A stretch of DNA of 64,000 nucleotides, taken from the NCBI GenBank assembly GCA_036262075.1, contig DATAJO010000003.1, positions 15,464 to 79,463 on the forward strand, read 5' to 3'. The stretch is from Candidatus Limnocylindria bacterium (GTDB taxonomy: Bacteria > Chloroflexota > Limnocylindria > QHBO01). Position numbers and translations under genes: made by a program. This document shows, piece after piece, positions 7,451 to 13,075 of this stretch. The notes under the pieces were generated by a model. The model saw only the letters and a list, made by a program, of their open reading frames with translations. It was not told where the DNA came from and made no database searches. The first letter of the stretch is position 1. Each line of letters starts with the position of its first letter.

Positions 7451-7966
7451 TCAGTGCGCGGGGAGACGGCCGCGGATCGTCCGCCGCCGGCGGCGCTGGA
7501 CCACCGTGGAGACCGCCGCCGCATGTGCCGGCGACGAGCCGACGCCGTCACGCAGCCAGGCGATCGCGGCGTCGAGGTCGTCGGTCGCGAACGGCTTGGC
7601 GAGGATGGCGACCCCGGGCCCCGACACGAGCTCGATCGGCAGCGACGGCAGGGCCAGGCCGGTGCAGATCAGGAGGCGGGGGAGGGCCTGGAGCTCTTCG
7701 CGGACGCGGTGGCCGAGCGACAGGAACTGGGTGCCGTCGACGACGAGGGCATCGGGCCGCAGGCCGATGGCCAGGCGGCCGTCGAGCTCGACCGGGTCGA
7801 GCACCTCCGCCTCGGCGATCAGCTCCCCGAGGAGCAGGCGCATGCCCGGTTCGCGATCGCTGACCCAGATCGCCGCGCTCACGATGCGTCCGAACAGCAA
7901 GCGGAGTGCCGAATTGGCGGGGTCGCAGACCGAACCTGCGGTGGCGGGGCTCCGTACGATTGTCAT
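7451..7966 (-). CDS. stand-alone response-regulator receiver (CheY-like) domain protein
   Basis: Lower part of the artefactual 7451..9532 ORF. From ATG 7966: [18 protein letters not shown] (beta1/alpha1), [10 protein letters not shown] (phospho-acceptor Asp region), [15 protein letters not shown] (K-P-F motif). High GC3 after the first codons. Confidence 0.55.
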
Positions 7967-7975
7967 CCTCGTCGT

Positions 7976-9556
7976 ATGGATGAACGAATGAGCGAGCGGA
8001 CCTGGCAGCCGATGGACCGCCCGGCCACGCCGAGCCGCGGCCTGGCCGCGATCGCCGGCGCCGTGGCCGGTGCGGCCGCGCTCGGGGCCGCGGAGCTGCT
8101 CGCCGGCATCCTGCCCGGCGCCGCGAGCCCGGTCGTGGCCATCGGCGACCTCGTCATCTCGCTCCAGCCGCCGGGGGCGAAGCAGCTCGTCGTCGACCTG
8201 CTCGGCACGGCCGACAAGCTCGCGCTCAACCTGCTCGTCGTGGCCGTGGCGCTCGGCATCGCCGCGGGCCTGGGCGTGCTCGCGCGCCGATCGTTCGACC
8301 TTGCCCGCATCGGCTTCGCCGCCTTCGGCATCCTCGCCCTCGGGGCGAGCCTCCGTGACCCGCTCGCCTCGCCGCTCACCAGCCTCATCGTGGCCGCGCT
8401 GGCCGTCCTCGTGGCGATCGTCGTGCTGCGACGGCTGCTCGCCGCGGCCGCTCGGCGGCTCGGCCCGCCCGCAGCCGAGATGCCGGCCTGGGGGCGGCGG
8501 AAGTTCCTCATCGGCTCCGGCGCGCTCGTGGCCGCATCGGTCGCCGGCGGCGTCCTCGGGCGGACACTGCTCGAGCGCGGGCGGCTGGGCGCGGTGCCGC
8601 AGACGGGGGCGCTGCCCAGCCCGGCCGAGCCGGCGCCACCGCTGCCGGACGGCGCCGAGCTCGAGGTGAACGGCATCACGCCGCTCGTCACGCCCAACGA
8701 GCGCTTCTACCGGATCGACACCGCGCTCATCATCCCGCGGCCGGAGCTGGCGAAATGGCGCCTGCGGATCCACGGCATGGTCGAGAACGAGCTCGAGCTC
8801 ACGTACGACGAGCTCCTCGAGGAGCCGATCATCGAGCGGTACGTGACGATCGCGTGCGTGAGCAACGAGGTCGGTGGCGACCTCGTCGGCAACGCGCGCT
8901 GGGGCGGGGTGTCGCTGCGCCGGCTCCTCGACCGCGCCGGCGTCGATCCGGCCGCGACGCAGATCGTCGGTCGCGCGGTCGACGGCTTCACCGCCGGCTT
9001 CCCGGCCGTGCACGCCCTGACGGAGGGGACCGAGTCGCTCGTGGCGCTCACGATGAACGGCGAGCCGCTGCCGCCGGACCATGGCTTCCCGGCGCGCCTC
9101 ATCGTGCCGGGACTGTTCGGCTACGTATCGGCCACGAAGTGGCTGGGCGAGATCGAGCTCACGACCTGGGAGGCCTTCGACGCGTACTGGGTCCCGCTCG
9201 GATGGGCGAAGGAAGGACCGATCCTGACGCAGTCGCGGATCGACACGCCTCGTCGCGGTGACCGGCTCCCCGCCGGCACGATCCCGGTCGCCGGCGTGGC
9301 GTGGGCGCCGGATCGGGGGATCGGCGCGGTCCAGGTCCAGGTCGACGACGGCCCATGGTCGTACGCCGAGCTCAGCACGCCGATCTCCGACGCCACGTGG
9401 GTCCAGTTCGTGTACCAATGGAACGCGACGCCCGGCGACCACACGCTCCGCGTCCGCGCCACCGACGGCCACGGCGAGGTCCAGGAGGAGGGGCCGACCC
9501 GGCCCGCCCCGGACGGAGCGCGCGGGTATCACACGGTCGAGGTCAGCGTCGGCTGA
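7976..9556 (+). CDS. molybdopterin-dependent oxidoreductase (sulfite-oxidase / MsrP-YedY family) with fused N-terminal ~6-TM membrane domain
   Basis: Start ATG 7976 or 7988 inside the 7454..9556 ORF. N-terminal hydrophobic helices, then the Moco domain (RFYRID, IACVSNEVGG, GFPARLIVPG) and a C-terminal dimerisation domain. Confidence 0.8.
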   Translation: MDERMSERTWQPMDRPATPSRGLAAIAGAVAGAAALGAAELLAGILPGAASPVVAIGDLVISLQPPGAKQLVVDLLGTADKLALNLLVVAVALGIAAGLGVLARRSFDLARIGFAAFGILALGASLRDPLASPLTSLIVAALAVLVAIVVLRRLLAAAARRLGPPAAEMPAWGRRKFLIGSGALVAASVAGGVLGRTLLERGRLGAVPQTGALPSPAEPAPPLPDGAELEVNGITPLVTPNERFYRIDTALIIPRPELAKWRLRIHGMVENELELTYDELLEEPIIERYVTIACVSNEVGGDLVGNARWGGVSLRRLLDRAGVDPAATQIVGRAVDGFTAGFPAVHALTEGTESLVALTMNGEPLPPDHGFPARLIVPGLFGYVSATKWLGEIELTTWEAFDAYWVPLGWAKEGPILTQSRIDTPRRGDRLPAGTIPVAGVAWAPDRGIGAVQVQVDDGPWSYAELSTPISDATWVQFVYQWNATPGDHTLRVRATDGHGEVQEEGPTRPAPDGARGYHTVEVSVG

Positions 9557-9571: not shown

Positions 9572-10849
9572 TCAGCTGGAGGGCCCGCGACCCCATTGCG
9601 GCGGTGCCGGTGGCCGCGACATCGGCGAGAGCCTGATCTCGACCTCGATGAGGCCCTCGGCCAGCGGCTTGTCGCTGATCAGCTCCCACGCCGCGTGCGA
9701 CAGGTTCGCCACGCGCTGGTCGGGCGTCCCGACGTAGCACGGGCAGGAGTCGACGACCGGCAGGGACGCGCACCGATCGGCGCAGATCATGACCCAGCCT
9801 GGATCGTCGCCGGCCCGGACGCCGCCGATCTCGAGGGGCAGCGCCACCGTCGGCTGGCCCTCGTACCCGGCGCTCGCCGCGTAGCTCGACGCCTTCCCGG
9901 TCGCGACGCCGTCGACGACGGGGATCGGGCCCTCGTCGACCGTCGGCCCCTCGGGCGCCGTGGCGACGCGACCGTCGGTCGCCGCCGCGACGCTGGCGGC
10001 CGCCACGCCGCTGAGGCTCGCGTCCGGATCGCCGGCAAACGCGTACCAGTAGTCGACCTTGCCCTCGAAGTAGGCCGAGCGATGGAGCCACGTCTCGGCG
10101 CCGTCGACCGCGGGATGCGCGAAGCGGGCCAAGCCGTCGGGGTCGAAGTGCGGGTCGGCGGCGAACACGTCGCCGTAGGGCAGGAACGGGTTGTCGAGCA
10201 GCGTGCCGACGAGGCTCGCGGCGCCCTCGTAGAAATCGGTGGCGAAGTAGGCCGATGCGCCGAGCTCCGCCAGCGGGGCACGCGAGTACGCGCTGACGCG
10301 CTCGGCGGCCGTCGTCTCGTCGGCGGGGTCGTGCTGGCCCTCGCCCGCGCCGGGGGCGTAGCAGGCGTTGGAGTAGATCATCACCCAGCCCGGTGCCGGC
10401 TTCGCGTGCTCCGCGATCCACGCCTCGCCGTAGTAGCGCAGCGAGCCGTCGCGGTAGGAGTCGGCGTGGCCATTCGGCCTCGGCCCGTTCAGGCCCCAGC
10501 CGTTGACCACGCCCGGGTTCGGGGTGTTCGAGTACGGGTTCGGGGTCCCGACGCCGTGGCCGAGGTAGACGACGATGTTGGCGCCCTCGACCGCGGCGAG
10601 GACGTTCTCGGCGGTGGCGTCGGGTGAGTAGGCCTTGGCCACCTCGGCGCCGCGCTCAGTGGCCGCGGTGGCGGCCGCATCGGCCAGGGCGATGTAGACC
10701 GGGGTCAGCTCCTCGCCGACGGGTCCGACGATGATCGCGACCTTCGCGATCGGCTCTGCACCTTGCGCGGTGGCGGGCGCGCCGAAGCCGGCGACGACCG
10801 TCGCCAGCAGGGTGACGAGCAGAAGAGCTGGGCGCACGACTCCCCTCAT
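9572..10849 (-). CDS. secreted two-domain protein: N-terminal putative His/Cys-dyad (caspase-fold-like) peptidase domain plus C-terminal RlpA/expansin-like DPBB domain
   Basis: Signal peptide from internal ATG 10849 (MRGVVRPALLLVTLLATVVAGFGAPATAQG). Strand-His (IVVYLGHG) and strand-Cys (VMIYSNACYAPG) arrangement. C-terminus GKASSYAA..GWVMICADRC..LSHAAWELI resembles double-psi beta-barrel lytic/expansin domains. Domain calls are inferred from motifs. Confidence 0.55.
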   Translation of the reverse strand: MRGVVRPALLLVTLLATVVAGFGAPATAQGAEPIAKVAIIVGPVGEELTPVYIALADAAATAATERGAEVAKAYSPDATAENVLAAVEGANIVVYLGHGVGTPNPYSNTPNPGVVNGWGLNGPRPNGHADSYRDGSLRYYGEAWIAEHAKPAPGWVMIYSNACYAPGAGEGQHDPADETTAAERVSAYSRAPLAELGASAYFATDFYEGAASLVGTLLDNPFLPYGDVFAADPHFDPDGLARFAHPAVDGAETWLHRSAYFEGKVDYWYAFAGDPDASLSGVAAASVAAATDGRVATAPEGPTVDEGPIPVVDGVATGKASSYAASAGYEGQPTVALPLEIGGVRAGDDPGWVMICADRCASLPVVDSCPCYVGTPDQRVANLSHAAWELISDKPLAEGLIEVEIRLSPMSRPPAPPQWGRGPSS

Positions 10850-10963
10850 GCAGGGCCCGCCAGGGCCTCGTAACGCTACCACGCCCCTGATGATCCGGGG
10901 ACGGTCGAGGCCCATGAACCCCCCAATTCGCGCGGATCGGCGAGGGATCGCCGCGGGCGAGCG

Positions 10964-11800
10964 TCAGCCCGGGACGGCCGCCAGCTCCGCTGCGGGCTGC
11001 TCCGGTCCGGCGACGAGCGCCTCGAAGATGACGTCGGCCCAGGCCGAGTAGCCGACGACCGAGGGGTGGAACCGGTCCTCGGACAGGACGTCGCGCCGCC
11101 CGCGGATGCGCGGCGGGACCTTCGCCGCGAGGTCGGCGTAGGCGACGCCGGTGGCCTGGGCCTCCGAACGGCTGATCGGCCGGAGGAGCTTCGCCCACGA
11201 ATCGGCGATGAGGATGAGCGGCTCGATCTGTGGCAGGGCACCGCGCAGGGCCGGGATCCCCGCCAGCACGACCCGGGCCTGCGGCGCGGCATCGCGCACG
11301 CGGCGCAGGAGGTGGCGCAGGGACGCGCGATAGCGGCGCGGGTTCGTGCGGTGGGTCGCGTCGTTGGCGCCGACGACGATGGCCACGACATCGGCTCCCG
11401 GCAGGAAGGGCTCGGTCTCCGAGCTGCGAAGTGGCTCCAGGGCGCGGCGGAGCTGCTGCTCGGCGACGTCGGCCATGCGGGCGCCGGCCCAGCCGTAGCT
11501 AACGACGTGCACAGGGCGTCCCTCGGCATCGGCCAGGCGTCGCGCGATGAGGTAGGGGAGCGCGTCCTCGGGTCGCGTGACCCCCACGCCGGCCGTCGTC
11601 GAGTCACCGAGGACGACCATCCGCAGGCGTCGCGAGTCACGCACGCTCGCCGGCCCGACGACGTGGTTGACGTAGAACCCGGGATGGCCGGGCAGGAAGC
11701 GCATCCGCTTCAGGCGCATGAACTGGACGGCGACGATGCCGGCGAACGCGCCGATCGCCGCGCCGAGGATGCGCGCGATGCTCGGCAGCCAACGACCCAT
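10964..11800 (-). CDS. SGNH/GDSL-family hydrolase with N-terminal membrane anchor
   Basis: Start at internal ATG 11800 (MGRWLPSIARILGAAIGAFAGIVAV); VVLGDSTTAG (GDS block I), GANDA block, DRFHPS (catalytic His block). Confidence 0.7.
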   Translation of the reverse strand: MGRWLPSIARILGAAIGAFAGIVAVQFMRLKRMRFLPGHPGFYVNHVVGPASVRDSRRLRMVVLGDSTTAGVGVTRPEDALPYLIARRLADAEGRPVHVVSYGWAGARMADVAEQQLRRALEPLRSSETEPFLPGADVVAIVVGANDATHRTNPRRYRASLRHLLRRVRDAAPQARVVLAGIPALRGALPQIEPLILIADSWAKLLRPISRSEAQATGVAYADLAAKVPPRIRGRRDVLSEDRFHPSVVGYSAWADVIFEALVAGPEQPAAELAAVPG

Positions 11801-12823: not shown

Positions 12824-13075
12824 ATGGTGAGCCAGGAGGCGGGTGCCCCGAAGGTCGGCGCGGAGGTGCGTGGCAAGCGCGGCCGGCGCATCGGCACCGT
12901 CGACGCCGTCTTCGCCGATTACCTGCTCGTGCGCACCGCGGGCCTCCTGCCGGTCGATCTCTACGTCCCGCGGCCGGAGACGAGGCTCGAGGGCGACGCC
13001 GTCGTCGTCGACGCCGATGCGCGCGAGGCGTACGCGCGCTGGCATCGGCCGCTCAAGCGCGCGCCCCACCCGTGA
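12824..13075 (+). CDS. small hypothetical protein (PRC-barrel-like, possibly DUF2171)
   Basis: 83 aa, good GC3; RIGTVDAVFADYLLVRT motif. Family assignment uncertain. Confidence 0.4.
   Translation: MVSQEAGAPKVGAEVRGKRGRRIGTVDAVFADYLLVRTAGLLPVDLYVPRPETRLEGDAVVVDADAREAYARWHRPLKRAPHP

Follow-up and report, generated by a model that had tools for sequence, protein, structure and literature searches.

Cysteine peptidases of clan CD place the catalytic His on loop L3 and the catalytic Cys on loop L4, with a small sheet between β3 and α3 (PMC4357240), and a His-Gly...Ala-Cys motif is the signature of the clan (PMC12445089). Among double-psi β-barrel (DPBB) proteins, the activity of the bacterial expansin EXLX1 requires D71, Y73, and D82 (PMC3995998). 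RlpA of P. aeruginosa retains the catalytic Asp and is active, whereas E. coli RlpA reportedly lacks lytic transglycosylase activity because Ser stands at this position (PMC9712689). DPBB proteins are also able to inhibit cysteine proteases (PMC7662947). In C. difficile, processing of the S-layer precursor is carried out by Cwp84, a secreted Cys protease that a binding module anchors to the wall (PMC12445089). Here, we compare these systems with a gene in a 64,000-nucleotide stretch of DNA from a Candidatus Limnocylindria bacterium, referred to as the window. Its 425-aa product appears to join a clan CD-like peptidase domain to a DPBB domain.

Gene model, neighborhood, and family

The complete coding sequence lies at 9572..10849 on the minus strand and comprises 425 codons followed by TGA, according to the ORF list and a codon check. 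Its ATG start codon occupies 10847-10849. An alternative in-frame ATG at 10915 might add 22 residues, but the start at 10849 is preferred because homologs open at the MR... position. The G+C content of the window is 70-75%, long chance ORFs are frequent, and six of them overlap the 9572-10849 locus. Homologs, cluster representatives, and conserved synteny nevertheless identify the 425-aa ORF as a real gene and not as a high-GC chance ORF. The best 120 of 1,293 homologs (E<=1e-3) are 65-94% identical over 89-100% of the length, and a 50%-identity library contains 920 related cluster representatives. The ORF and the predicted secreted two-domain protein of the initial annotation are confirmed, and all motifs quoted there were found. 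An identity of 65-70% is kept class-wide along with the chromosomal position, and the gene, present in single copy and strongly conserved, is one of the core genes of Limnocylindria (Chloroflexota). All named homologs come from metagenome-assembled genomes (MAGs) of Candidatus Limnocylindria or Chloroflexota, and every one is annotated as "hypothetical protein."

The protein is composed of a signal peptide, a clan CD-fold peptidase domain, a linker, the DPBB, and a tail. Residues 1-28 (10766..10849, minus strand) show the pattern MRGVVR, hydrophobic core, ATA|QG, and the sequence of this N-terminus, MRGVVRPALLLVTLLATVVAGFGAPATA|QG, has the features of a Sec signal peptide, including an AxA site for cleavage. 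A lipobox Cys is absent from it, both in the sequence itself and in the homolog alignment. The N-termini of homologs vary in sequence and keep signal-peptide character, and residues 5-22 form a helix in the full-length model. The linker, residues 291-312 (9914..9979, minus strand), is an Ala/Gly/Pro-rich low-complexity segment of variable length and sequence, which corresponds to the gapped, unconserved columns 301-338 of the homolog alignment and has a pLDDT below 50 at residues 291-305 of the full-length model. The Pro-rich C-terminal tail, residues 411-425 (9575..9619, minus strand), is likewise variable and unconserved, with a pLDDT below 50. In the representative search, residues ~5-290 and ~300-410 behave as separate modules, each of which is also found without the other. 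The window holds no second copy of either the peptidase domain or the barrel.

The gene is part of a syntenic block that consists of PaaA, a small ORF, a YegS-type kinase, a GDSL hydrolase, the 425-aa gene, a molybdopterin (Moco) oxidoreductase, a small ORF, and a β-eliminating lyase. Convergence with the Moco oxidoreductase, which had been remarked on before, is borne out by an Oxidored_molyb match (E 2e-42) and stop codons only 15 nt apart. By contrast, the supposed orphan receiver at 7451-7843 (minus strand) matched nothing in Pfam with the cutoff relaxed to E<=1, and this part of the initial annotation is not sustained. Directly upstream and co-directional, a membrane-anchored GDSL/SGNH hydrolase is encoded at 10964..11800 on the minus strand (Pfam Lipase_GDSL_2, E 1.4e-28). 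It neighbors the 425-aa gene in the same direction at most orthologous loci (L002-L013) and is absent from L001 and from more distant orthologs (L021-L024). The hydrolase is a possible operon partner of the 425-aa gene but is treated as a lead only, because the linkage is lost in the more distant orthologs. A function deduced from an operon was considered and rejected, as the syntenic block is functionally mixed and does not persist in those orthologs. Hence, with metabolically unrelated neighbors and lost linkage, the gene context yields no substrate.

Searches of the full-length protein against Pfam and NCBIfam returned zero matches even at E<=10, in agreement with the earlier remark that no described family fits. 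Single-sequence phmmer against the PDB gave only a spurious aminopeptidase match, and profiles of the two domains hit PDB sequences by chance only. The peptidase domain is best described as a new, Limnocylindria-restricted sequence family of clan CD in a new architecture. This family is confined almost wholly to Limnocylindria and their uncultured MAGs. Neither Pfam nor NCBIfam has a model for it. For one of its subfamilies at least 3,392 relatives were found and for another 1,293, and a genome carries several paralogs; a divergent subfamily of mostly single-domain proteins (~290 aa) accounts for 3,392 matches, which, where named, belong only to Limnocylindria or Chloroflexota.

The peptidase-like domain and the barrel

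The caspase/gingipain-fold (clan CD-like) domain comprises residues 33-290 (9980..10753, minus strand). The full-length model was derived from a shallow alignment; its pLDDT was 72.5 and its pTM 0.56, and the loop 99-140 was unresolved. For the N-terminal domain, a model rebuilt from a diverse alignment (pLDDT 93.5) was used instead. The modeled order of elements is β1-α1-β2-α2-β3-[GHG]-small β-hairpin-α3-β4-[NAC]-α4-β5-α5, followed by a further sheet. The motif IVVYLGHG covers residues 92-99 and contains strand β3 (92-96) as well as G97-H98-G99 (10553..10561, minus strand), in which His98 (nt 10556-10558) is the predicted catalytic His. The segment VMIYSNACYAPG covers residues 156-167 and contains strand β4 (156-160) as well as A162-C163 (10361..10366, minus strand), in which Cys163 (nt 10361-10363) is the predicted nucleophile. 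Both assignments combine modeled secondary structure and conservation. As in clan CD, a His-Gly loop follows β3, an Ala-Cys loop follows β4, the His comes first, and the modeled α/β/α sandwich superposes on solved catalytic domains of the clan.

In the table of structural neighbors, SAVED-CHAT stands at 13.5 (172 residues, 3.0 Å), Gingipain R at 12.3, the CHAT peptidase DdvA at 11.4, and Gingipain K at 11.3. Metacaspases (10.1-10.4), MALT1 (10.2), legumain and OaAEP1 (both 10.1), GPI8 (9.9), caspases (8.9-9.8), and separases (8.4-9.1) complete the clan CD entries, and the first unrelated fold is NQO1 at 8.3. Foldseek, which is less sensitive, agrees, with SAVED-CHAT as the sole significant match (E 1.7e-5). 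Non-peptidase alternatives for the domain, flavodoxin-like or otherwise Rossmann-like, were rejected: 29 clan CD structures rank above them, and they would leave the invariant His and Cys unexplained.

Among 103 diverse relatives of the N-terminal domain, His98 is kept in 101 and both flanking Gly residues in 102-103, while position 163 is Cys in 91 and His in 8. G97, G99, G101, P103, Y139, G141, E142, Y164, G167, E170, and R184 are near-invariant in the same set. In the orthologs, His98, Cys163, and their Gly/Ala neighbors are invariant (47/47). Some paralogs of the domain have clearly lost the His/Cys dyad. Known sequence families are approached below threshold: Peptidase_C25 in 10 of 21 family members (best E 0.014), with 12.2 bits and an E of 0.11 for the query domain against a gathering threshold of 23 for PF01364, and Peptidase_C50 in 5 of 21. 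Neither the query nor any of the 21 members matched Pfam CHAT (PF12770) at E<=10, even though the structural comparison ranks CHAT first. Taken as a model, the N-terminal domain shows a clan CD-like fold with the predicted dyad in the canonical place and conserved, and the clan CD-type assignment of the initial annotation, together with its proposed His/Cys pair, holds up.

The DPBB domain comprises residues 313-410 (9620..9913, minus strand), and the motifs GKASSYA, GWVMICADRC, and LSHAAWELI were located within residues 318-391. Its structural neighbors are the expansin D1 domains 9ms5 (9.5), 4jcw (9.1), and 7wvr (8.7), the RlpA-like barrel PA4485 (9.2; 78 residues, 2.2 Å), kiwellin (9.0), the Streptomyces papain inhibitor SPI (8.6; 26% identity), loosenin (8.4), and a barwin-like protein (7.8). 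Pfam DPBB_1 (PF03330) gave sub-threshold matches in 13 of 22 family members (best E 2.8e-4), and the query barrel obtained 14 bits (E 0.061) against a gathering threshold of 28.8. At the level of fold, the previous call of a C-terminal double-psi β-barrel is right, with the domain lying under the DPBB_1 family threshold. The four invariant cysteines, Cys 356, 360, 369, and 371, probably form two disulfides; they may alternatively provide a metal site.

Two acidic positions known from EXLX1 and RlpA behave differently in this barrel. The first is Asp367 in VVDSCPC (9749..9751, minus strand), which by motif would be equivalent to D71 of EXLX1 and to the Asp of "NDRGP" in RlpA. A motif scan finds Asp here in 119 of 120 fused proteins and in all 118 stand-alone homologs. 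The second lies in N382-L383-S384 (9698..9706, minus strand), an xxDLS motif whose catalytic or essential Asp is exchanged for Asn. In the motif R-x-x-[D/N]-L-S, all fused proteins (120/120) have Asn before L-S, and all stand-alone homologs (118/118) have Asp. Stand-alone barrel paralogs of 110-204 aa with an N-terminal anchor occur in the same genomes. The catalytic Asp of xxDLS that marks the lytic transglycosylases RlpA and MltA is thus replaced throughout the fused set. E. coli RlpA reads RVISLS at the motif, and a relaxed hmmsearch places the family stretch RVvDLSeaaW over its RVISLSRAAAD (E 0.27, motif region only). Comparison of the C-terminal domain profile with the single E. coli RlpA sequence by hhalign aligned an irrelevant linker and not the barrel. 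We infer the equivalence of N382 with the Asp of RlpA and EXLX1 mainly from the canonical motif together with this weak local alignment.

Because Asn occupies the position of the catalytic Asp, the barrel is likelier to be a targeting module than a transglycosylase, and most likely it would bind glycan without cutting it. The strict invariance of Asn382 suggests that this residue might be selected for binding. Thus, a natural Asp-to-Asn switch distinguishes the stand-alone barrel, which is probably catalytic, from the fused barrel, which probably only binds. The likeness to RlpA and lytic transglycosylases proposed in the initial annotation therefore extends to the DPBB fold but probably not to a catalytic role.

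Proposed role and alternative readings

The company kept by the N-terminal domain in other proteins bears on its location. A Pfam scan of 67 longer proteins that share only this domain found Big_5 (13), FlgD_ig (8), CW_binding_2 (6), CHU_C-like (4), Big_13 (4), SLH (3), SH3_3 (2), Peptidase_M23 (1), and PKD (1) as partners. Since CWB2, SLH, and SH3b are wall-binding modules, the peptidase domain appears to be tethered repeatedly to the envelope. Wall-anchoring partners of this kind occur also on proteases that act on proteins and not on peptidoglycan. Furthermore, a single-domain paralog from the divergent ~290-aa subfamily resides in two genomes inside a cluster of mreB, mreC, rmlABCD, the paralog, a GH18/Ig protein, and a GT2. 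The partner modules and this mreBC-rhamnose-GH18 cluster point to the cell envelope as the place of the peptidase family.

With moderate confidence, we favor a wall-tethered cysteine peptidase of the caspase/gingipain type in which a non-cutting barrel serves as the anchor and a conserved envelope substrate is processed. A conserved substrate is proposed because of the 65-70% identity across the class and the single-copy core status, and processing in the envelope is the likely job because other family members carry other wall-anchoring modules. After removal of the signal peptide, residues ~33-290 would fold as a clan CD-like cysteine peptidase. With His98 as the general base, Cys163 would attack the peptide bond, and the resulting acyl-enzyme would be hydrolyzed. 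A flexible linker would connect this domain to the C-terminal barrel, which, with Asp367 lining the groove, the four Cys kept, and Asn at position 382, might bind a glycan strand of the wall uncut and so anchor the peptidase. The substrate could be stem peptides or cross-links of peptidoglycan, or wall-associated proteins, comparable to the case of Cwp84 (PMC12445089). In Arg/Lys-specific clan CD enzymes, acidic pocket residues confer a preference for basic P1 residues; by analogy, one may speculate that the invariant Glu142 and Glu170 might do the same here.

A more specific version, which we regard as unlikely, takes peptidoglycan itself as the substrate. The N-terminal domain would then be a peptidase or transpeptidase of stem peptides or cross-links, the P1 pocket of Glu142 and Glu170 might read the dibasic stem residue (DAP, Lys, or Orn), and a formerly lytic or expansin-like barrel would have become a pure binder through the Asp-to-Asn exchange. 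Clan CD enzymes are not known to act on peptidoglycan or the wall, and for this reason such a substrate would raise the significance of the protein. Cell-wall hydrolysis would then be attributed to the caspase fold for the first time, which would extend the range of the fold, and the expansion of the family would represent a lineage-specific toolkit for wall remodeling in Limnocylindria.

The barrel might instead cap the active site of a zymogen and be freed by cleavage of the linker, in which case it would regulate the peptidase rather than target it. The C-terminal prodomain of legumain docks on the legumain active site in this manner, and SPI, a DPBB-type inhibitor, is among the structural neighbors of the barrel. 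We nevertheless judge the zymogen unlikely, given that the known DPBB protease inhibitors target clan CA and not clan CD, and that a profile search against PDB sequences found no sequence-level similarity between barrel and SPI. The full-length model moreover lacks confident inter-domain packing (pTM 0.56, linker pLDDT below 50), and paralogs fill the C-terminal position with CWB2, SLH, SH3b, or Ig modules or with nothing, which fits targeting better.

That the protein is a bifunctional autolysin, with the DPBB as an active lytic transglycosylase or glycanase comparable to P. aeruginosa RlpA or MltA and with the N-terminal domain cutting peptide stems, seems improbable. The Asn at the xxDLS position in every fused protein, next to stand-alone paralogs in the same genomes that keep the Asp, argues against it. 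The missing Asp is the stated cause of inactivity in E. coli RlpA (PMC9712689), and EXLX1 needs D82 (PMC3995998).

We attach little probability to a transpeptidase or ligase, in which an amine, for example of a peptidoglycan side chain, would resolve the Cys163 acyl-enzyme and attach surface proteins in a sortase-like manner. GPI8, butelase/OaAEP1, and PorU are clan CD precedents for such an amine-resolved acyl-enzyme, and GPI8 and OaAEP1 are among the structural neighbors of the N-terminal domain. On the other hand, hydrolysis is the default of the clan, and the loci compared showed neither conserved substrate genes next to this gene nor proteins with sorting signals. Equally improbable is an inert scaffold, i.e., a caspase-like pseudo-peptidase such as Raptor or c-FLIP that only binds and has a structural role in the wall, because the dyad, although lost in some paralogs, follows the invariance pattern of an active site in the orthologs and is near-invariant in the wider family.

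In soils and lakes, the Limnocylindria (formerly Ellin6529) are an abundant, as yet uncultured group of Chloroflexota whose envelope biology is barely described. For this group, the analysis supplies thousands of "hypothetical proteins" with an annotation, namely a caspase/gingipain-clan fold with recurrent wall-anchoring modules. The 425-aa protein, which we prefer to read as a wall-tethered peptidase, is a candidate for a new class of envelope-processing enzyme.

Comparison with known systems

By fold and active-site layout, the gingipains RgpB and Kgp (MEROPS C25, clan CD) and the CHAT peptidases are the closest to the 425-aa protein. Gingipains are found in Bacteroidota, whereas the protein described here is from Chloroflexota, remains below the C25 gathering score (12.2 vs 23 bits), and has neither an N-terminal prodomain nor Ig-like/haemagglutinin domains nor a T9SS C-terminal domain. 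CHAT peptidases (SAVED-CHAT 8tl0, DdvA, Craspase TPR-CHAT) are signaling and defense effectors of the cytoplasm or membrane that are activated by nucleotides or partners. In contrast, the 425-aa protein is predicted to be secreted, and both a sensor domain and a Pfam CHAT match are absent.

For the barrel, E. coli RlpA provides the nearest parallel, as it is a DPBB with an xxDLS-type motif in which another residue takes the place of the catalytic Asp, Ser there and Asn here. By analogy, this replacement suggests a binding or structural role of the fused barrel at the wall. RlpA is a septal lipoprotein composed of a DPBB and a SPOR domain, whereas the 425-aa protein has no lipobox and, according to Pfam, no SPOR; its barrel is joined to a peptidase, has four conserved Cys, and lies under the DPBB_1 threshold. 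Compared with the bacterial expansin EXLX1, D2/CBM63 is missing, with only ~15 variable residues after the barrel, and the putative equivalent of D82, matched by motif, is Asn. Loosenin, cerato-platanin, kiwellin, barwin, and SPI are single-domain relatives of the expansins.

Finally, Cwp84, which has CWB2 repeats, resembles the proposed arrangement in being a secreted cysteine protease that a binding module holds at the wall. Cwp84 has the papain fold of clan CA and is unrelated to the 425-aa protein in fold and sequence. The likeness is thus one of functional analogy only, and paralogs of the N-terminal domain also carry CWB2 modules.

Genes neighbouring the fusion gene

Immediately upstream of the gene for the fused peptidase–DPBB protein and co-directional with it lies a gene (10964-11800, minus strand) whose product is a GDSL/SGNH hydrolase anchored in the membrane at its N-terminus. 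Among the orthologous loci compared, this adjacency is present in most (L002-L013) and missing in L001 and in the distant orthologues. The GDSL/SGNH hydrolase could be a wall esterase partner of the fusion protein.

At the Moco oxidoreductase, two mirror-image ORFs of ~700 codons each occupy opposite strands (7451-9532, minus strand; 7454-9556, plus strand). A domain is found in the plus-strand ORF only (Oxidored_molyb, E 2e-42). The true start of this gene is probably well downstream of 7454 because its orthologues are just 519-540 aa long. Apart from its final 130 codons, the ORF on the minus strand is an artefact of high GC content. Between the Moco oxidoreductase and β-eliminating lyase genes, a conserved small ORF of 130 aa (7451-7843, minus strand) keeps 52-55% identity across ~9 orthologous loci. 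The initial annotation took this ORF for an orphan receiver, a reading that finds no backing in Pfam, where its product has no match at E<=1. A second conserved small ORF (83 aa; 12824-13075, plus strand), located between a YegS-type lipid kinase gene and a PaaA/PaaC gene, is found in nearly all orthologous loci with 50-71% identity, and a Pfam search with its product gave no match.

Paralogues of the peptidase domain

Single-domain peptidase paralogues of ~290 aa occur in two Limnocylindria genomes (L086, 5001-5858; L088, 5001-5891). In both, the paralogue sits within a cluster arranged as mreB, mreC, dTDP-rhamnose genes (rmlABCD), paralogue, GH18/Ig protein and GT2. The predicted catalytic dyad, His98 and Cys163 in the fusion protein, is lost in some family members from the representative library, including P0185 and P0166; 8/103 members carry His at the position equivalent to Cys163 (e.g., GQAHYAPG). 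P0185 retains neither the dyad His nor the Cys, and its caspase-like fold is interrupted by a Peptidase_M23 domain.

Stand-alone relatives of the DPBB barrel

The fused barrel contains four invariant Cys residues (356, 360, 369, and 371; window 9737-9784, minus strand) in a C-x3-C-x8-C-x-C pattern; they could either pair up as two disulfides or make up a metal site. The same pattern recurs in stand-alone DPBB-domain paralogues of 171-183 aa with an N-terminal anchor (L084, 6001-6552; L085, 6001-6516). These are encoded at a separate conserved locus of their own, adjoining a TPM_phosphatase/DUF2207 gene. The Asp of the xxDLS motif, at whose place the fused barrel has Asn382, is retained in all stand-alone paralogues (118/118). 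The stand-alone proteins may represent the catalytically competent version of the fused barrel.
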